In this document: piece after piece, positions 2-8,443 of the stretch
How the letters are laid out: each line of letters starts with the position of its first letter
Position numbering within the stretch: position 1 is the first letter of the stretch
NCBI GenBank assembly: GCA_041736305.1
Contig: JBGSTX010000316.1
Span: 1 to 12,239, forward strand
DNA length: 12,239 nucleotides
Reading direction: 5' to 3'
From: Oligoflexus sp.
Lineage (GTDB): Bacteria; Bdellovibrionota_B; Oligoflexia; Oligoflexales; Oligoflexaceae
Made by a program: the position numbers and the translations under genes
The notes under the pieces: generated by a model
Database searches by the model: none
Told to the model about the DNA's origin: nothing
The model's input: the letters and a program-made list of their open reading frames with translations, nothing else

Positions 2-682
2 TGGAAGACGCCCTCCTATCTCGGTTGGACTCAGCATAGGGACGGCAGTCTTTCGCTGGGCTTTCATACTCTTTCCGGACGCATTGTCGACAGCGATAAG
101 CGCCCACTCAAGTCGGCCCTGCGCGAGCTGATAGAGCAATACCGTCTCGATCTGCAGATAACACCAGAGCAGGATCTGATACTATACGGAGTCCCACCCA
201 GCGAGCAGCGCAAGATCGAAGCTTTCCTCGATGCGCGCGGCCTCAGTCCAGCAAGTCCACAAAAGCTCTACGATCGAGCGCTCACCTGCGTGGCGCTGCC
301 GACGTGTAGCAAAGCTTTGGCCGAAGCTGAACGGGCGGGCCCCGAAATTTTTGGCTGGCTGCAGGAAAGCCTCGATCGTCACGCGCTCAATGAGAGGGCA
401 CCTATCGTTCGCATCACGGGTTGCCCCAACGGTTGCGCGCGCCCTTATACCGCAGAAATCGGCCTGGTCGGCCAAATGCCTGGTCAGTATGCGGTCTATC
501 TCGGGGGGGATGTCGAAGGTTTGCGTCTTGCTAAAAAGATTAAAGACAAGGTTAAAATCGCTGAGCTGCCTGCCCTCTTCGATCGTCTGAGTGCCATCTG
601 GTCTGAGCACAGCTCCAGTGAAGAACGGCTCGGCGATTTCACCTGGCGCTACGGGCACGACGCTTTAGGAGCTGCCCTATGA
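2..682 (+). CDS. cysI: Sulfite reductase hemoprotein (CysI/Sir family), C-terminal part; gene starts before the window
   Basis: The frame is open from position 2 (WKTPSYLGWTQHRDG...SGRIVD...QITPEQDLIL...) and contains the siroheme/4Fe-4S ligand motifs CVALPTC and ITGCPNGCARPY followed by AEIGLVG. Its TGA stop (680-682) overlaps the cysH ATG (ATGA). The 290 start in the ORF track is internal. Confidence 0.93.
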   Translation, partial: WKTPSYLGWTQHRDGSLSLGFHTLSGRIVDSDKRPLKSALRELIEQYRLDLQITPEQDLILYGVPPSEQRKIEAFLDARGLSPASPQKLYDRALTCVALPTCSKALAEAERAGPEIFGWLQESLDRHALNERAPIVRITGCPNGCARPYTAEIGLVGQMPGQYAVYLGGDVEGLRLAKKIKDKVKIAELPALFDRLSAIWSEHSSSEERLGDFTWRYGHDALGAAL

Positions 683-1428
683 CAGCTTTCGCGCAGCGCA
701 CGGCCGCTGATCTAAATGAAGCCTACGGAGATCTGCCTCCCGGCGAACTTCTGAAACTGCTCTTCACTTGGTACCCAGCGAGTCAAACGAGTTTTGCCAA
801 CAGCTTTGGTCTTGAAGACATCGTCATCCAGCATCTGCTGCTCAGTTTTCCTGAGCAAGCTGAGAGTTTTGTGCTCGACACGGGTCGACTGCCCGAAGAA
901 ACTTACGAACTCATCGAGCGTTGGCGCCTCCGCTTCGGGCTGAGACCGCGGATCTTCAGCCCGCGAGCTGATCTGCTCGATGAATTCCTAAGTGAAAATG
1001 GTCCAAACGCCTTCTATCAATCGCAGATCTTGCGCAAAAGCTGTTGCGGCATTCGCAAGCTCGAGCCCCTCACCCGCGCTCTAGCTGGAAAAACCGCTTG
1101 GATCAGTGGGCTGCGCCGCGAGCAGTCGAGCGCCCGCGCTTCGCTCGAAGTCTTCGCCTATGACGAAGACCAGCGTCTCAAACTCAGCCCGCTCGCCAAT
1201 TGGAATTTGGACCAAGTATGGACCTACGTGAGGGAGCACAATCTCCCTTACAATCGCCTCCACGATCAGGGCTATCCGAGCATCGGTTGCGCGCCCTGTA
1301 CGCGCGCCGTCAGCGCAGGCGAAGATCTGCGCTCCGGTCGCTGGTGGTGGGAGACAGATTTGCAACGTGAGTGCGGACTTCACACCCCGCGCAGTGAAAG
1401 GACTGAGCATGCCACGCCACAGCGCTAA
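679..1428 (+). CDS. cysH: Adenosine 5'-phosphosulfate (APS) reductase, CysH family, 4Fe-4S type
   Basis: Motifs [50 protein letters not shown]. The CC plus CxxC set marks cluster-containing APS reductases rather than PAPS reductases. Confidence 0.95.
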
Positions 1429-2305
1429 TGACTCTTATCTTGATCAGCTCGAAGCTGAAAGCATCGATATCTTACGCGAAGTCGCAGCGAGCTATCAGCG
1501 GCCGGCCTTACTCTATTCCGTGGGCAAGGATTCGTCCGTGCTCTTGCATTTAGCGCAGAAAGCCTTTGTTCCAGGGAAACTCCCTTTCCCACTCGTCCAC
1601 ATCGACACGGGCTACAAATTCGGCGAGATGTACAGCTTCCGCGATCATACTGTGAAAGAACTGGGTCTCGAACTCATCGTCCATCGGAATGAGGATGCGA
1701 TAGCCCAAGGAACCCATCCGCAGAAACGCGGTACCAGCGCTTGCTGCGCTCTGCTTAAAACTGAGGCGCTGCTCGACGTTCTTCGTCGCTATGAAATCGA
1801 TGCGGCCATCGGTGGAGCCCGGCGGGATGAAGAACGCTCGCGGGCCAAAGAGAGGATATTCTCCTTCCGCGATCGACATGGTCAGTGGGATCCCAAGAAT
1901 CAGCGGCCCGAGCTCTGGCAGCTCTATAATACGCGAGTGCATCCAGGAGAAAATATGCGGGTTTTCCCGCTTAGTAACTGGACTGAGAGCGATATCTGGC
2001 ATTATATCCGCCGAGAAGAAATCCCCATCGTTCCTTTGTATTTTGCCGAAGAACGTTGGGTTATCGATAAGGGTAGCCTCTTGATTCCAAGCGATGCGCA
2101 AGATCCTCGCGCCACGCGGGTCCTGAGCCGATTCCGTACCCTTGGCTGCAGTCCTTGTACAGGAGCGATCCGTTCGCAGGCACAAAATCTCGATGAGATC
2201 ATCGAAGAACTCTTTGCAGTCAGGGTTTCCGAGCGAGCGACTCGGGTGATCGATCATGATCAAGATGCTTCTATGGAACTCAAGAAACGGGAGGGTTACT
2301 TCTGA
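1409..2305 (+). CDS. cysD: Sulfate adenylyltransferase subunit 2
   Basis: [17 protein letters not shown]-loop [50 protein letters not shown]-terminal [11 protein letters not shown]. Start placed at ATG 1409, after GAAAGGA (1396-1402). Confidence 0.96.
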
Positions 2306-3843
2306 TGCTCTACAATCGCGAACCCAAGGCTGTTCTACGCATCACAACGGCTGGCAGCGTCGACGACGGCAAATCTACTTTGATTGGACGGCTGCTCTAC
2401 GAATCTTCGGCTATTTATGAAGACCAGCTGGCGTCCTTGCAAGAGAAGAAATCCCGCTCAGGAACTAGAGATGGCAGTAGCACGATCGACCTTGCGCTCG
2501 TGACCGATGGCCTCAAGTCGGAGCGCGAGCAGGGCATTACGATCGATGTTGCGTACAAGTATTTTGCTAGCAGCGAGCGGAAGTTCATTCTCGCCGATGC
2601 ACCAGGACATGTTCAATATACCCGAAATATGGTGACCGCCGCCTCGCGGGCCGATGTAGCGATAATTCTCGTCGATGCGGCGCAGGGAGTTCTCGAGCAG
2701 ACCCGCCGTCATGCTTATCTCTTGCATCTGCTCGGCGTGCCCCAAATAGTTTTAGCCATCAATAAGATCGACTCCATAGGCTACGACGAGGTGCGTATAG
2801 CAGCGATCGAAGCTGACTTTCTCAGCCTCAGCTGGCAGCGGGATTCACGCGCTGCCCTTTCGGTTATTCCCATGAGTGCACTGCTCGGTTGTAACGTCCT
2901 AAAACGAAGCCCAAATACTCCATGGTATCGAGGGCCGAGCCTTCTCGAGCTGCTCAACACTCTCAATCCGCGTCGGCTTAGCAGCTCGGCCTTCCAGCTG
3001 CCCCTACAGTATGTAGGGCGCGACGCACATGGTCGGCGCTTTGCGGCGGGAACTCTGCAAAAAGGGACGATTCATCGAGGCGATCGCGTGCGGCTGCTGC
3101 CCTCACAACGCGAGAGTGAAATCGCCGCACTATGGGTGCATGGGGTGGCGACCGATCGCGCGGATGCTGCTAGCGCGGTGGCCATTGAACTGAGTGACGA
3201 ACTCGATCTCGAACGAGGCAACATTCTCGTGCCTAGGGAGTTAAAGCTGCAGCCGACCCGGCGCTTCAGCGCTCAGCTTGTGTGGTTCGACAATGAGCCT
3301 TGGCGAGCGCAGGAGCGGTATATTCTGAAGATGGGGACCCAAAGCAGTCGCGCCCAAATCGTTGAGATTGAATACCGTTACGATTTAGAGAAGCTGGAGG
3401 AATTGCCAGCTTCCGTGCTGCAGATGAACGATATCGCCAAAGTCCAAGTGCAGAGCGCCCGCCCTCTATTCGCAGAGTCTTATGCCGAAGATCGCGAGGC
3501 GGGCGCTTTTATTCTCATCGACCCCCAAACAAACCGTACCGTAGCGGCTGGGATGACCGAAGATCGGCTCGACGCTGCGGCAAGTCTTGCAGACTCACCT
3601 CTGAGTCGCCTCCAGCTGGTCGATTCACTGGACCGCTCCAAAGCCCTCTTATCCGGCCAACTGCTGCAGATTCCTCAGAGCTTTCTGGAGATCAACACCG
3701 ATACCGCACAGCTACATGCTTTAGGACTACTCTTGGAACTAGGCTGGTCCCTGCAAGTGGAGCATAGTCAGGAAGCCCGGAAACTCCAGCAGGGCCTGGC
3801 GGGCCTTGGCTATGGCTCCTTCGATCAAGGCTCCGGCATCTAA
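2305..3843 (+). CDS. cysN: Sulfate adenylyltransferase subunit 1 (GTPase) with an atypical ~95-aa C-terminal extension
   Basis: TAGSVDDGKSTLIGRLL, EREQGITIDVAY, DAPGH, YTRNMVT, NKID, GAFILID...TVAAGM. TGATG coupling to cysD. No APS-kinase P-loop in the extension. Confidence 0.95.
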   Translation: MLYNREPKAVLRITTAGSVDDGKSTLIGRLLYESSAIYEDQLASLQEKKSRSGTRDGSSTIDLALVTDGLKSEREQGITIDVAYKYFASSERKFILADAPGHVQYTRNMVTAASRADVAIILVDAAQGVLEQTRRHAYLLHLLGVPQIVLAINKIDSIGYDEVRIAAIEADFLSLSWQRDSRAALSVIPMSALLGCNVLKRSPNTPWYRGPSLLELLNTLNPRRLSSSAFQLPLQYVGRDAHGRRFAAGTLQKGTIHRGDRVRLLPSQRESEIAALWVHGVATDRADAASAVAIELSDELDLERGNILVPRELKLQPTRRFSAQLVWFDNEPWRAQERYILKMGTQSSRAQIVEIEYRYDLEKLEELPASVLQMNDIAKVQVQSARPLFAESYAEDREAGAFILIDPQTNRTVAAGMTEDRLDAAASLADSPLSRLQLVDSLDRSKALLSGQLLQIPQSFLEINTDTAQLHALGLLLELGWSLQVEHSQEARKLQQGLAGLGYGSFDQGSGI

Positions 3844-3868
3844 ACCATGCCTATAAAGATCTGATCTC

Positions 3869-3903
3869 TTGAATTGATAGAATCATTTTCTTAGGGTTAA
3901 TAT
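3869..3903 (+). promoter_or_regulatory. Possible internal sigma-70 promoter for cysE-cysK
   Basis: AT-rich 89-bp gap containing TTGAAT-N17-TAGGGT (3869-3897) and TTGATA-N18-TAATAT (3874-3903). Confidence 0.35.
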
Positions 3904-3932
3904 GAGAGCTTTGCGTCTTGAGGGGAGAAATC

Positions 3933-4751
3933 ATGAGCGGGACTCTGGAAACCTTTCTCCAGCAGCGTACTCTCGAACACGAGTTGCTCTGCAGCTATCA
4001 CGAAACTATTCAGGCTCTCATCCGTTTGAGCAGCAGTGGACTCCTCTTTGAGCGGGAGCCCCAGGCTTTTTTTAAAGTACAGATCGAACCTTTGCTCGAA
4101 AAACTGCTCGGCTGTCTCAGACGCACCTACACTGAAAACCATGCGGGTCTTAGGCGAGTTTCGGTGCAGGACCTCAGCCAGGACCTGCAGAAGATCGCCC
4201 CGCTGCTGCGCAGTGACATCGAAGCTGCGCTCAAGAATGATCCGGCTACCGAAGACCCACTCGAAATCCTCTTTTGCTATCCAGGCTTCAAAGCGATTAC
4301 AGCCTATCGGATCGCGCACGTCTTCTACCTCCGCTCGCTGCCGCTCATTCCGCGCATGATTGCTGAATTAGCCCACGAGCAGACGGGAATCGATATCCAC
4401 CCCGGAGCTGAGATCGGTTCGCACTTTTTTATCGATCACGGCACGGGAGTGGTGATCGGTGAGACGGCCATCATAGGTCAGGCGGTGACGCTCTATCAGG
4501 GAGTCACTTTGGGTGCAAAGAGCTTTGCACGAGACGCTGAGGGGACGGTGATCAAGGGCCAGCCGCGACATCCGATTCTAGAAGACCGGGTCACGGTCTA
4601 TGCGGGCGCGACAATTCTCGGTCGCATAACGATTGGAGCTGCGAGTATGATAGGCGGCAACGTGTGGCTGACCGAGAGCGTTCCTCCCAAGAGTCGCATC
4701 ACGCAGCAGCATTACCTAGCCCATTTTTTCCGTGATGGAGATGGAATTTAA
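3933..4751 (+). CDS. cysE: Serine O-acetyltransferase (CysE/EpsC-type)
   Basis: DPA...[53 protein letters not shown], hexapeptide repeats, C-terminal GDGI. ATG 3933 follows GAGGGGAG. Confidence 0.95.
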
Positions 4752-4768
4752 AGATATCAGGAGCAAAC

Positions 4769-5713
4769 ATGCAAAGACGTCAGCGCCCTAAAATTGCTAA
4801 AAACATTCTGGAAACCATCGGCAATACGCCCTTGGTCCGCCTCAACAAACTCACGAAGGGTCTCAGCGCCGACATCCTACTCAAGCTGGAGTTCTTCAAT
4901 CCCCTTTCCAGCGTCAAAGATCGCATAGGCGCCGCTATGATAGAGGCTGCTGAAGAAAGCGGAGCACTCAAAGCCGGTATGACGATCGTCGAACCGACCA
5001 GCGGTAATACCGGAATCGCACTAGCTTTCGTTGCCGCGCAGAAAGACTATCGCCTTATTCTGACAATGCCCGAGACAATGAGCCTTGAACGACGGAAAAT
5101 GCTCAAGGCCCTAGGCGCAGAGCTGGTTCTTACGCCTGGCGATAAGGGAATGAAAGGAGCCATTGCTAAGGCCGAGGAGCTCGTGGGCAGCAATCCTAAT
5201 TACTTCATGCCGCAGCAGTTTAAAAACCAGGCGAACGTTCTGGCCCACAAGTCTTCAACGGCTCTCGAAATCTGGGATGACACGGATGGCGAAGTCGATA
5301 TCCTGATTTCTGGGGTTGGTACCGGTGGCACCATTACCGGCGTTTCAAGCGTTCTCAAGGAACTGAAGCCCGGCTTTAGAGCGATAGCGGTCGAGCCTCG
5401 CGATTCTCCCGTCCTTTCCGGTGGTCAAGCTGGACCGCACAAAATCCAAGGTATCGGTGCAGGCTTCGTACCCGACATTCTCGACAAGAGGCTGGTCGAC
5501 GAGATAGTTCCCGTGAGCAATGAAGAGGCAGGGATATGGGCCCGTCGCGCGGCGAAAGAAGAAGGTATACTGTGCGGAATTTCCTCAGGCGCAGCTATCG
5601 CTGCTGCTGTGCAGGTAGGAGCCCGGCCCGAAAACAAGGGTAAAACCATAGTCGTGATCATACCCAGTACCGGTGAGCGCTATCTTTCCACTTGGCTCTT
5701 TGATGATGCTTGA
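4769..5713 (+). CDS. cysK: Cysteine synthase A (O-acetylserine sulfhydrylase)
   Basis: [12 protein letters not shown] lysine in [64 protein letters not shown] at 4759-4763. Confidence 0.96.
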
Positions 5714-5719
5714 GCGACG

Positions 5720-5751
5720 AGCCGAAGACGACGCAAGCGTGGGGCTTTTTT
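5720..5751 (+). terminator. Weak or imperfect intrinsic terminator candidate after cysK
   Basis: AGCC...ACG-CAAG-CGT...GGCT followed by a T-run (5746-5751). The stem is interrupted. Confidence 0.3.
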
Positions 5752-5771
5752 GAGTCGTGAAGAGAAATAAC

Positions 5772-5800
5772 TTGTCAAAGAACAAGGCCCTGCCTATTGT
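5772..5800 (+). promoter_or_regulatory. Sigma-70 promoter for the metB/metC-like genes
   Basis: TTGTCA (5772-5777) - 17 nt - TATTGT (5795-5800). The predicted start near 5806-5808 coincides with the 5' end of the aptamer-like motif. Confidence 0.65.
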
Positions 5801-5807
5801 GAGCAGG

Positions 5808-5851
5808 TGAAGGATTTGTGGCCGATTGCAGCTTTAATCTGCTAAAGAGCC
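5808..5851 (+). ncRNA. SAM-II-like riboswitch aptamer candidate (compact variant)
   Basis: UGAAG-GAUUUG-UGGCCG-AUUGCA-G-CUUUA-AUCU-GCUAAAG-AGCC. The SAM-II core blocks GAUUU, UUGCA and GCUAAA are in the right order. P1 is UGAAG/CUUUA; the pseudoknot pairs GGC..UUGC with GC(U)AA..GCC. It lies upstream of Met biosynthesis genes. The P1 register and L3 length deviate from the canonical motif. Confidence 0.6.
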
Positions 5852-5903
5852 CGTCCTGTCTTGCAAGCCGCTACGCAGCTTTTGGAGACAGGATGTGTAC
5901 TTG

Positions 5904-5935
5904 AAAAAAGCCACGCTCCCGCGTGGTTTTTTTTT
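5904..5935 (+). terminator. Strong intrinsic terminator/attenuator inside the metB-like leader
   Basis: AAAAAAGCCACGC-TCCC-GCGTGG-TTTTTTTTT: a GC-rich stem plus 9 T, about 100 nt before the start codon. Confidence 0.85.
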
Positions 5936-6034
5936 GCGCAAATCCCGAGTAAATCGCTGATATTCGAGCGTCTTTTGAGGCGCGTCGCGATCCCTTGTTT
6001 TTTTCCTCGAAAGTACCTTACGGAGGATTTGCTC

Positions 6035-7219
6035 ATGTCTCAGGAAGCAAGCTTGTCAACGCTAGTCGTTCACGCCGGCGAAGCGCGTGAAAAAAGTGAC
6101 TTTGCCATCGTCGACCCCATTCACTGCGCGTCGACTTTCACCTTTGCCGACACGGCCGCAATCATCTCAATGCTCGAAAACGAAGGACTTGCCGAACGCG
6201 ACGAGTACGCACGCTACAGTAGTCCTAATATCAGGACGGTCGAGAAGAAGCTGGCTCAGCTCGAGGGGACCGCTGACGCCCTCCTCTGCACAACCGGAAT
6301 GTCCGCTCTCACGCTACTCTTTTGGAGTCATCTGCGGCCGGGCGATCACTTGCTTTACTTTGATCGCTGCTATCATCGCACTAGACAGTTCTGCAGCGAT
6401 TATCTCGAACAATTCGGGGTCCGCTGCGAAGCCATCCCGACCGGCGATTTTGCGGCCTTGGAAGCAGCCACCAACGCCAAGACCAAGTTGATTTTCACCG
6501 AACTGCCGACCAACCCCCACCTGGACGTCATCGATCTCGAGCGCCTCTGCAGCTTCGCTCGCGCCAAGGGCATAAAAACCTGTATCGACACGACCCTGGC
6601 GAGTCCCATCAACGTGCGGCCGGCTGAGTGGGGAGCCGACTTTATCCTGCATTCGGCGACCAAATATCTGGGTGGACATAATGATCTTCTCGCCGGCGTC
6701 CTTGCCGCTTCCGTCGAGGATTTGGCCCCAGTCCGCAAACTACAGGGTATCAGTGGTGCAATAGCGGCTCCTCATACGGCTTATCTCTTGCAAAGAGGGC
6801 TCAAGACTCTCGCTCTCCGCATCGCTCAGCAGAACCGCTCGGGCCAACGCGTGGCTGAATTTTTGGCCCAACACCCCCGAGTGGAAAAAGTCTACTATCC
6901 CGGGCTGGAAACGCATCCGAGCTATGCGCTGGCCCGCCGCTTTCTTAGTGGCTTTGGCGGTCTCATCAGCTTTGAACTCAAGACTGATAGGAAGGGTGCG
7001 AGTCGCTTCGTCGATGCGGTGCGGATCCCTCGCATAGGTCCAAGTCTAGGCGGGGTTGAATCCCTTATCGAACAACCGGCGATCATGAGTTTTTACCGAG
7101 CTTCCGAGGCCGAGCGGCGGCGCTGGGACATCAGCGATTCCTTAGTTCGTCTCGCGTTGGGAATCGAAGACAGTGAGGATCTCATTGCGGATCTTGAGCA
7201 AGCTTTAGCCACCATTTAA
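6035..7219 (+). CDS. metB: Cystathionine gamma-synthase, plant-type (Cys/Met metabolism PLP-dependent family)
   Basis: VHAGE, EYARY, CYHRTR, ELPTNP, PLP site HSATKYLGGHND, RGLKTLALR, YYPGL, PSLGGVESLIEQPAIMS. ATG 6035 follows GGAGG (6022-6026). The 5861 start in the ORF track lies within the leader. Confidence 0.8.
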   Translation: MSQEASLSTLVVHAGEAREKSDFAIVDPIHCASTFTFADTAAIISMLENEGLAERDEYARYSSPNIRTVEKKLAQLEGTADALLCTTGMSALTLLFWSHLRPGDHLLYFDRCYHRTRQFCSDYLEQFGVRCEAIPTGDFAALEAATNAKTKLIFTELPTNPHLDVIDLERLCSFARAKGIKTCIDTTLASPINVRPAEWGADFILHSATKYLGGHNDLLAGVLAASVEDLAPVRKLQGISGAIAAPHTAYLLQRGLKTLALRIAQQNRSGQRVAEFLAQHPRVEKVYYPGLETHPSYALARRFLSGFGGLISFELKTDRKGASRFVDAVRIPRIGPSLGGVESLIEQPAIMSFYRASEAERRRWDISDSLVRLALGIEDSEDLIADLEQALATI

Positions 7220-7231
7220 GAGGAGTAGTCC

Positions 7232-8443
7232 ATGCATCTTTCCACTCGGTCCATTCACAGTGGCAACAGCAAAGATCCGCTGACAGGCGCCGTCATCCCC
7301 CCGCTCTATCTTTCGTCGACATTTGCACCGGATGGGGATTTTTCTCAGGCACGCTTCGATTATTCCCGCAGCGGGAACCCGACTAGGGCCTGTCTGGAGA
7401 CGACTCTTGCGGCGCTCGAAGAAGGTTGCGGTGCCTTGGCTTTTTCCTCGGGCATGGCGGCTATCCACTGCGCTCTGCAGCTGCTCAAGACGGGCGAGCA
7501 TGTTCTCGCCAGCAGCGATATTTATGGAGGAACCTATCGCATCCTGCACAAAATCCTCAGTCGCGTGGGCATCGAAACGACCCTGGTTCAAATGAACGAT
7601 CTTGCGGCAGTTAGGGCCGCCATTCGCCCTAACACGCGCATCCTCTGGGCGGAGAATCCCGGCAATCCCCTGCTCTCGCTCGTAGATATCGAGGCGATAG
7701 CCGAGTTGGCCCACGAGCACGGTGCGCTCTTAGCTGTCGACAATACTTTCGCCACTCCGGTTGCGACACAAGCACTGACCCTCGGTGCCGATATCGTTAT
7801 GCATTCGGCTACTAAATTTCTCGGCGGTCACAGCGACCTCTTGGGGGGTGCCCTCATCGTCAAGGACCCAGCCTTGCTTAAGGAACTCTACTTCATCCAG
7901 AATGCAACGGGAGCCGTCATGGCTCCTTTCGATGCGTTTCTCTGTTCCCGCGGTATCAAGACCCTCGAGTTGCGTTTTCGAGAGCAGTGTAAAAGCGCCC
8001 TGTGGATCGCGCAGTACCTCGTTCATCATCCCGCCGTAAGCCGCGTCTACTACCCCGGTCTCCCTGATCATCCCCAGCACGCATTGGCGCAAAAACAACT
8101 GCGCGGCTACTACGGAGCAGTCGTCAGTTTCGAGCTTGATGCCGACTTTGCGGCAGCTCAGGCCTTTGTGAGCCATACCAAGCTTTTCCAGAGAGCCGTC
8201 AGTGTGGGGGCTGTAGAATCTCTTATTGAACAACCGGCTTCGATGTCGCATGCAAGCTACGACAGGCAGGATAGATTAAAAGCAGGCATACACGATGGCC
8301 TCATCCGACTCTCTGTGGGACTCGAGCATGTGCACGATTTACTAGCTGATTTGCAGCAGGCTTTTCATCATTTTAATGGAAGTGAGAAACGCGAGCTGGC
8401 AAGTTCTACGGCAGAGCTTCCGCTATCGACTCATGCCCATTAG
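7232..8443 (+). CDS. Cystathionine beta-/gamma-lyase (MetC/MccB-like trans-sulfuration enzyme)
   Basis: TGAVIPPLYLSSTF, FDYSRSGNPTR, FSSGMAAI, DIYGGTYR, VDNTFAT, HSATKFLGGHSD, SVGAVESLIEQPASMSHAS, GLIRLSVGLE. RBS AGGAG at 7221-7225. The family is secure; beta-lyase is favoured only because it is paired with the synthase. Confidence 0.85.
   Translation: MHLSTRSIHSGNSKDPLTGAVIPPLYLSSTFAPDGDFSQARFDYSRSGNPTRACLETTLAALEEGCGALAFSSGMAAIHCALQLLKTGEHVLASSDIYGGTYRILHKILSRVGIETTLVQMNDLAAVRAAIRPNTRILWAENPGNPLLSLVDIEAIAELAHEHGALLAVDNTFATPVATQALTLGADIVMHSATKFLGGHSDLLGGALIVKDPALLKELYFIQNATGAVMAPFDAFLCSRGIKTLELRFREQCKSALWIAQYLVHHPAVSRVYYPGLPDHPQHALAQKQLRGYYGAVVSFELDADFAAAQAFVSHTKLFQRAVSVGAVESLIEQPASMSHASYDRQDRLKAGIHDGLIRLSVGLEHVHDLLADLQQAFHHFNGSEKRELASSTAELPLSTHAH

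Follow-up and report, generated by a model that had tools for sequence, protein, structure and literature searches.

The subject of this work is the leader of a metabolic gene on a 12,239-nucleotide (nt) stretch of DNA from Oligoflexus sp. (contig JBGSTX010000316.1). We refer to the whole stretch as the window; all coordinates are window positions on the + strand unless stated (Table 1). The leader carries a SAM-II-like aptamer (SAM, S-adenosylmethionine), an intrinsic terminator and, right behind the terminator, a short strand, the box, with complementarity both to the 5′ strand of the aptamer and to the Shine–Dalgarno (SD) region of the gene. The regulated gene, called metB in a preliminary description of this DNA, encodes a Cys/Met-metabolism pyridoxal phosphate (PLP) enzyme and is followed by a paralogue. 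NCBIfam does not fix the reaction of either enzyme: the best matches (methionine gamma-lyase, cystathionine gamma-synthase) are all below cut-offs. The cluster upstream contains two PAPS-reductase-family genes, an EF-Tu/CysN-type GTPase (2305–3843), a serine acetyltransferase-like gene (3918–4751) and a PALP enzyme (4769–5713). The intergenic region that follows (5714–6034) is 321 nt long, with the riboswitch leader as its second half. The riboswitch stands at the boundary between a cysteine block upstream and a methionine block downstream.

Table 1. Features of the riboswitch leader and its neighborhood in the window. MFE, minimum free energy.
Feature	Position	Strand	Basis or remark
Sulfate-assimilation and cysteine-synthesis cluster	679–5713	+	Directly upstream of the riboswitch leader, same strand
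Candidate sigma-70-type promoter, TTGTCA, 17-nt spacer, TATTGT	5772–5800	+	Consensus scan, 1 site versus 0.3 expected
SAM-II-like aptamer, H-type pseudoknot	5808–5854	+	Model R1, 65.2 bits; covariation over 47 copies
Aptamer P1	5809–5812 with 5832–5835	+	Pseudoknot model
Aptamer L1, GAUUUG	5813–5818	+	
Aptamer P2a	5820–5822 with 5849–5851	+	
Aptamer P2b	5826–5829 with 5841–5842 and 5845–5846	+	
Variable hairpin between aptamer and terminator	5852–5895	+	In MFE structures; sequence and length vary among relatives
Intrinsic terminator	5904–5935	+	A-tract 5904–5909; GCCACGC 5910–5916 with GCGUGG 5921–5926; nine U 5927–5935
Box CGCAAAUCC, core CAAAUCC 5939–5945	5937–5945	+	Conserved; both anti-aptamer and anti-SD strand
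Second segment GAGUAAAUC, window-specific	5947–5955	+	9 bp (one G·U) to 6026–6034, in the ligand-free MFE structure of 5809–6046
Inner helices of the post-terminator leader	5955–5958 with 5967–5970; 5972–5980 with 6005–6013	+	MFE folds
Ribosome-binding region	6022–6034	+	SD GGAGGA 6022–6027, ending 8 nt before ATG
Regulated gene, Cys/Met-metabolism PLP enzyme ("metB")	6035–7219	+	PF01053, 7.9e-120
Second Cys/Met PLP-enzyme paralogue	7232–8443	+	PF01053, 4.6e-146

At gathering thresholds, Rfam places no family in the window. In E-value mode, positions 5800–5866 align weakly to RF01726 (SAM-II long loop, 13.5 bits) and RF00521 (SAM_alpha, 13.1 bits), for which the gathering scores are 44 and 36. 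The weak alignments match the ligand-pocket strands GAUUUG, GAUUGCA (AUUGCA) and UGCUAAAG, and across 47 copies of the element these columns vary little or not at all. Other E-value matches (Leu, Phe and Thr leaders, RNAI, istR and others) resemble the locus only in the shape of a hairpin followed by a terminator and were set aside. A DNA search of 41 related genomes recovered the aptamer core (5810–5851) at 85–93% identity only within the genus of the window, where nine of the 13 further genomes have it. Genomes of the genus hold one to three copies, upstream of different genes, and the window's own genome holds one. A covariance model was built from 15 genus copies and used to filter a pattern scan of species-representative genomes, which added 32 copies, all from Planctomycetota metagenome-assembled genomes (MAGs). 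The aptamer loci considered below are the window, L003–L017, 32 among L041–L113 (Planctomycetota) and L156–L163. Searching 131 genomes of the phylum with the model yielded one extra weak copy (G052, from another family of the same order, with P1 = ACC/GGU); this copy lacks a box and sits on a contig too short for the downstream gene to be seen.

The copies share an H-type pseudoknot, in which the loop of the P1 hairpin pairs with the 3′ tail as P2a and P2b. In the 47-copy alignment (43 distinct sequences), two P1 pairs covary (AU 23, UA 5 and CG 3; GC 30 and AU 11), as does one P2a pair (GC 38 and UA 3), and the P2b pairs are invariant across copies and hence uninformative on covariation. Overall, 92.5% of the cells are paired and none of 500 shuffles scored as high, in an alignment that was fitted to a model carrying P2 and is therefore biased towards P2. 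Downstream of the aptamer in the window lies, by its PF01053 match, a gene of methionine/SAM metabolism, and in leaders of relatives there are reading frames of 390–398 codons with VHAGE-type coding sequence (read by eye without a family scan). Across the genus and the Planctomycetota MAGs, the subclass is found mostly upstream of Cys/Met PLP enzymes. Its Rfam scores stay below the SAM-II gathering thresholds; judged by pairing, covariation and context, 5808–5854 is a true SAM-II-like aptamer that escapes the Rfam models, and we infer that its ligand is SAM. The earlier call of an aptamer followed by an intrinsic terminator is thus borne out by the covariation and by the terminator at 5904–5935.

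Hexamers similar to those of the candidate promoter (CTTG..A / TA...T) occur in relatives at the same distance from the aptamer. The transcript probably starts near 5806–5807, which would put the aptamer at its extreme 5′ end. The terminator is present at the equivalent position in all 16 genus leaders, and its 5′ strand GCCAC (5910–5914) is complementary to GUGGC of the aptamer (5818–5822). In relatives, the terminator stem likewise opens with GCC(A/G)C, and in most Planctomycetota copies with GCCGC(A/G), complementing the P2a strand G(U/C)GGC (read by eye); we regard GUGGC/GCCAC as a likely antiterminator pairing. A three-codon mini-ORF (open reading frame; AUG UGU ACU UGA, 5893–5904) has GGAG in front of it, and the surrounding sequence GAUGUG(U/A)ACU(U)GA also precedes the terminator in L003, L011 and L159. 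Leader-peptide attenuation was set aside, this sole mini-ORF having no run of regulatory codons.

The preliminary description had proposed a second switch behind the terminator, in which an anti-SD strand chooses between the aptamer and the SD region. The repeat AGGATTTG, both box pairings and the inner helices on which it relied are all found where it had placed them. In the inner helices, CGCT (5955–5958) pairs with AGCG (5967–5970) and CTTTTGAGG (5972–5980) with CCTCGAAAG (6005–6013); they are not kept in relatives, whose leaders cannot be aligned there. The box is conserved. Among 23 leaders of the genus type (the window, 15 genus relatives and seven metagenome leaders), the core CAAAUCC lies 3–11 nt past the U-tract in 21 (15 of 16 genus and six of seven metagenome leaders). 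The two boxless leaders, L011 and L159, have a different sequence at this site, which they share with each other. An alignment of ten lineage representatives shows the box as the sole conserved island after the terminator, in flanks that are otherwise unalignable.

Downstream of the box-bearing leaders lies one of two unrelated genes, either that of the PLP enzyme or a small ORF; the small ORF follows six genus leaders (L012–L017) and three metagenome leaders (L156, L160, L161). The small ORF is monocistronic and 68–81 codons long in five of the six genus leaders (for example L012:1207–1410(−) and L013:1633–1848(+); also L014, L015 and L016); in L017 the corresponding frame is just 22 codons long. 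Its product carries the motif LEGDPLSREKLEF...RSEGGD and has no more than 13 homologues in a large protein collection, with no match in Pfam (three scanned) or NCBIfam (one scanned). By its leader, the small ORF appears to encode a SAM-regulated protein.

Conservation is what separates the box from coincidence, the reading in which these are short functionless complementarities in an A/U-rich leader. The window taken alone is unremarkable: GGATTTG occurs four times on both strands where 1.89 are expected, and a count of four is attained in 21 of 200 shuffles. The arrangement is thus not above chance in the window alone; it is above chance because it is conserved in relatives, and a box present in 21 of 23 leaders before two gene families, as an island in unalignable flanks, contradicts coincidence, which we regard as very unlikely.

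The first partner of the box is the aptamer. CGCAAATCC (5937–5945) pairs over 9 bp, one of them G·U, with GGATTTGTG (5812–5820), and this helix is in the MFE structure of 5800–6045 (z = −3.83; none of 200 shuffles as stable). When the pairs were tallied from the box outwards in 19 distinct sequences, the seven core pairs were present in all 19 and the flanking pairs in 13, 15, 16 and 10, and positions beyond the helix paired in only 2, 1 and 0. This sharp drop defines a helix of 9–11 bp. Where the aptamer sequence changes, pairing is retained: GGAUUUG is GGGUUUG in most small-ORF leaders (L013–L017, L156), the pair being kept as G·U (L012, L160 and L161 retain GGAUUUG), and one flank pair occurs as U·G, U–A and C–G. 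Folding of the aptamer is incompatible with this helix, which occupies L1, the 5′ strand of P1 and part of P2a. Unconstrained ensemble folds give the box core a probability of at least 0.85 of pairing with the aptamer in ten of 15 leaders (0.99 in the window). The relatives therefore support the aptamer pairing first proposed from the window, in that both the strand and this pairing are conserved.

The same complementarity could also act in trans, with the box on full-length mRNAs as a target for the terminated transcript (~130 nt, its 5′ end carrying GGAUUUG), for another small RNA (sRNA) or for a protein that binds CAAAUCC. S. meliloti accumulates terminated riboswitch RNAs in the form of sRNAs (as described in PMC9373788), and genomes of the genus have one to three aptamer copies before different genes with the same box in all. 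Set against this, a cis partner lies only ~120 nt away on the same RNA, with a predicted pairing probability of 0.85–1.0 in the ten leaders above, and the analysis gave no indication of a protein or of a separate sRNA; we consider a trans target improbable.

The second partner is the SD region. GCAAATCC (5938–5945) is the exact complement of GGATTTGC (6025–6032), and the MFE structure of 5936–6046 contains this helix together with both inner helices. Since 5936–6046 folds into the box–SD helix and 5800–6045 into the box–aptamer helix, the two partners compete in the energy model. In the window, the repeat AGGATTTG overlaps both partners (5811–5818 in the aptamer and 6024–6031 at the SD). The second copy is peculiar to the window: among relatives, the box and the copy in the aptamer are retained and the SD sequences differ. 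The conserved element is the box, not the repeated 8-mer pointed out at the SD in the preliminary description. The repeat would have another meaning if a second, degenerate SAM-II/SAM-V-like aptamer overlapped the ribosome-binding site (RBS), with the recurrence of AGGAUUUG at 6024–6031 as its 5′ motif. Tandems of SAM-II followed by SAM-V, with terminator and then RBS control, are known (described in PMC9481103). With its filters off, however, the aptamer model gave only 1.8 bits at 6021–6036, from a match to the 5′ motif alone, which contradicts a tandem; the SD motif is absent from relatives, and the bases downstream are coding sequence. Of the explanations we weighed, this is the least probable, and extremely so.

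Because UCC is the anti-SD core, its presence in the box alone proves little. The 3′ flank of the box, by contrast, varies by lineage and yet matches the flank of its own SD. In the window, GCAAAUCC on the box side faces GGAUUUGC on the SD side (6025–6032); the corresponding pairs are UCC(C)GAAG with CUUCGGA in L004, AAUCCC with GGGAUU in L005, UCCUGG with CCGGGA in L006 and L009, and UCCUC..GC with GC..GAGGA in the small-ORF leaders. In a comparison of nine lineage representatives, hand-picked among the box-bearing leaders, a leader's own box–SD duplex was more stable than cross duplexes (mean −10.6 versus −7.9 kcal/mol, permutation p = 0.0004). MFE structures of the post-terminator leader pair the SD with the 3′ part of the box or with the adjoining 3′ flank in ten of 15 box-bearing leaders, and the anti-SD hairpin of the small-ORF leaders begins within the box.

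Outside the genus, complementarity to the aptamer 5′ strand was analyzable in 31 of the 32 Planctomycetota leaders, 19 with a U-tract and 12 without. An exact search of all 32 for CAAAYCC/AAAUCC gave three pattern matches, none of them after a terminator. Six of the 12 leaders without a U-tract contain a segment strongly complementary to this strand (z = −2.4 to −3.4). In one of these leaders, L098, the complement runs into an anti-SD, GGCAUCACUUCCA against UGGAGUG (read by eye, for L098 only). Modeled changes in the cost of opening the RBS in the six were +1.7, +4.6, +0.1, +8.0, 0.0 and +1.8 kcal/mol. Because terminator-less Planctomycetota leaders carry aptamer complements, with an anti-SD overlap in L098, an anti-SD with two partners is, as far as these sequences indicate, the ordinary translational platform of the aptamer family, the sole platform of those terminator-less leaders, which the window's genus puts behind a terminator. 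In L088, on a Planctomycetaceae MAG contig, AUCCCAAGG lies past a terminator-like hairpin with a weak U-tract and complements both GGGAUU of the aptamer and CCUUGGGAU, which sits just 5′ of the start codon; L088 may be an independent instance of the two-partner arrangement.

We modeled switching in 15 leaders by barring the aptamer nucleotides from pairing, which mimics the ligand-bound state in models without pseudoknot, ligand or kinetics. Blocking the aptamer raised the box–SD pairing probability by at least 0.3 in eight of the 15 (0.00 to 0.47 in the window, 0.01 to 0.76 in L005 and 0.06 to 0.74 in L012). This pairing was already high in the free state in L003, L006 and L009 and was absent in L007, L008 and L010. 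The cost of opening the RBS (−16 to +4) rose by at least 1.3 kcal/mol in ten of the 15. The constrained folding suggested in the preliminary description thus comes out as predicted for the box–SD helix of the window and only modestly for access to its RBS (+1.6 kcal/mol).

Several results weigh against a translational role of the box. Barring the aptamer nucleotides from pairing represents a ligand-bound pseudoknot only crudely in these models. The change in opening cost was about zero or negative in five of the 15 leaders, and the boxless control L011 also rose by 2.6 kcal/mol, so that the control is not clean. The unpaired probability of the SD core moved in the predicted direction in seven leaders, was unchanged in two and moved in the opposite direction in six, among them the window (0.30 free, 0.41 blocked). 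In the free state of the window, 5947–5955, which the preliminary description had missed, pairs with 6026–6034. That partner is the spacer between SD and start codon, and 5947–5955 competes with the box for the RBS; no counterpart is seen in the sequences of relatives. The ON state proposed for the free aptamer would therefore be only partly open at the RBS. The post-terminator leader of the window (5936–6046) does not stand out in stability from its shuffled versions (z = −0.60, with 57 of 200 folding at least as stably). In the sublineage of L007, L008 and L010, the box is retained and the box–SD duplexes are weak (−5 to −7 kcal/mol, with SD regions GGAAGG). In the own-versus-cross comparison, in which L008 was not a representative, the own duplexes of L007 and L010 both ranked 8th of nine when the box was kept fixed; when the SD was, they ranked 4th and 9th of nine. 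Pairing with the aptamer therefore explains the conservation of the box better than pairing with the SD does, and the anti-SD role proposed for the box is upheld by the own-versus-cross duplexes and fails to extend to this sublineage, which has little box–SD complementarity. Outside the genus, the 19 Planctomycetota leaders with a U-tract have no complement past the terminator (z = −1.7 to +1.3), and the arrangement with the box after the terminator is thus lineage-specific.

Several of these points feed the main rival explanation, that the box, by pairing with the aptamer, only closes and locks the riboswitch domain in read-through mRNA, with SD complementarity as a by-product of the UCC core. 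Such a lock might disable the aptamer after the termination decision, insulate downstream folding or bury the 5′ end against 5′-end-dependent decay. It would account for the box–aptamer helix being the most conserved feature and persisting in L007, L008 and L010 despite weak box–SD pairing, and for a modeled change in RBS access that is small or absent in a third of the leaders. The predicted transcript start lies only a few nucleotides before the helix, and the state of an S. meliloti SAM-II riboswitch affects mRNA stability (as described in PMC9373788). It fits less well with the greater stability of own box–SD duplexes and their lineage-specific flanks, with the small-ORF leaders whose anti-SD hairpin begins within the box, and with the aptamer complements of terminator-less relatives, fused to an anti-SD in L098. 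We rate a mere lock as unlikely, though clearly the strongest of the alternatives.

The reading that we favor by a small measure is that one SAM-II-like aptamer (5808–5854) drives two expression platforms in series. Conservation backs its structural part, in which a single strand has two mutually exclusive partners; the functional part, a second switch that would act on translation in response to SAM, is no more than plausible and is weak in one sublineage. At the first platform, ligand binding would hold the aptamer 5′ strand GGAUUUGUGGC in the pseudoknot and triplex, and terminator 5904–5935 would form; in the ligand-free RNA, GUGGC would pair with the terminator 5′ strand GCCAC and permit read-through. 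At the second platform, the box would be transcribed right after the U-tract. In ligand-free read-through RNA, the aptamer 5′ strand would capture the box (9 bp), removing the UCC anti-SD, and the RBS would open more easily (ON). In leaked RNA with ligand bound, or binding later, the aptamer strand would be unavailable, 5938–5945 would pair with 6025–6032 and initiation would be blocked (OFF). The fuller claim, that this is a natural single-aptamer bi-mechanism riboswitch which acts first on termination and then on the translation of escapees through an anti-aptamer/anti-SD strand, in a SAM-II-like subclass undetected by Rfam and common to the Oligoflexus-type genus and Planctomycetota, we put forward tentatively, at slightly less than even chances.

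The usual description of a riboswitch joins one aptamer to a single expression platform. Control at two levels is known to arise from a second aptamer in tandem, from an RBS buried in the terminator or through proteins such as Rho and RNase E. SAM-II riboswitches lie upstream of methionine-pathway genes, often with an intrinsic terminator next, as described by Barrick and Breaker (2007, PMC2258182). The present aptamer resembles SAM-II (RF00521, RF01726) and SAM-V in its H-type pseudoknot, short P1, U-rich L1 (GAUUUG), (A/C)UUGCA and UGCUAAAG strands and G+C-rich P2a. It differs from the Rfam SAM-II models, against which it scores ~13 bits, in that P1 is only 3–5 bp long and at the very 5′ end of the transcript and GCAG/CUGC is invariant. 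Its hosts are an Oligoflexus-type genus and Planctomycetota, whereas those of SAM-II are Alphaproteobacteria or Bacteroidetes.

In the bi-mechanism tandem described in PMC9481103, a SAM-II aptamer with a terminator is followed by a SAM-V aptamer that controls the RBS, each with its own platform. Our leader would share with it the ligand class and the order of termination and then RBS control on one mRNA. Unlike the tandem, it has a single aptamer, and its second platform reaches back over the terminator to the aptamer 5′ strand; only one aptamer is found within 5700–6200, the next best match near the RBS scoring the 1.8 bits noted above. Barrick and Breaker (2007, PMC2258182) describe "dual transcription and translation attenuation" as an RBS within the 3′ strand of the terminator. 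That platform likewise combines one aptamer with two possible levels of control; here, however, the SD lies 87 nt past the U-tract, outside the terminator, and the anti-SD is a separate strand. In the S. meliloti metA SAM-II leader, a Rho-independent terminator lies inside the leader and a distant downstream start codon is translationally controlled, giving dual regulation (Scheuer et al, 2022, PMC9373788). In that leader, unlike ours, the SD is inside the aptamer and sequestered directly and the second effect is mRNA stabilization, and the abstract of the paper describes no post-terminator anti-SD box. Synthetic dual-control RNA regulators (described in PMC5435934) also apply one RNA input to termination and translation to cut leak; unlike the present leader, they are engineered and antisense-RNA-driven, with no metabolite aptamer. 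The box fits the anti-SD/anti-anti-SD scheme of translational riboswitches: in sequence and folding, it complements the SD on the one hand and, on the other, a strand of the aptamer which the ligand would sequester. In the open-access literature, judged mostly by title, we found no SAM riboswitch in Planctomycetes/Planctomycetota, no riboswitch in Oligoflexus and no description of a post-terminator anti-SD box. The supplementary alignment of the Rhodopirellula-1 motif (Weinberg 2010, PMC2864571) is unrelated to the aptamer.

Among the relatives, one has a protein with 100% identity to a protein that NCBI names from Oligoflexus tunisiensis, and the arrangement is therefore directly testable. 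The aptamer subclass extends SAM-II-like sensing to phyla in which Rfam 15 detects none. If the two-platform reading is true, the leader would need no second aptamer to achieve multiplicative repression and, possibly, reversibility at the post-transcriptional level. Such a leader would be a compact means to suppress terminator leak and to keep the full-length mRNA responsive to ligand, and a possible design pattern for low-leak synthetic switches.

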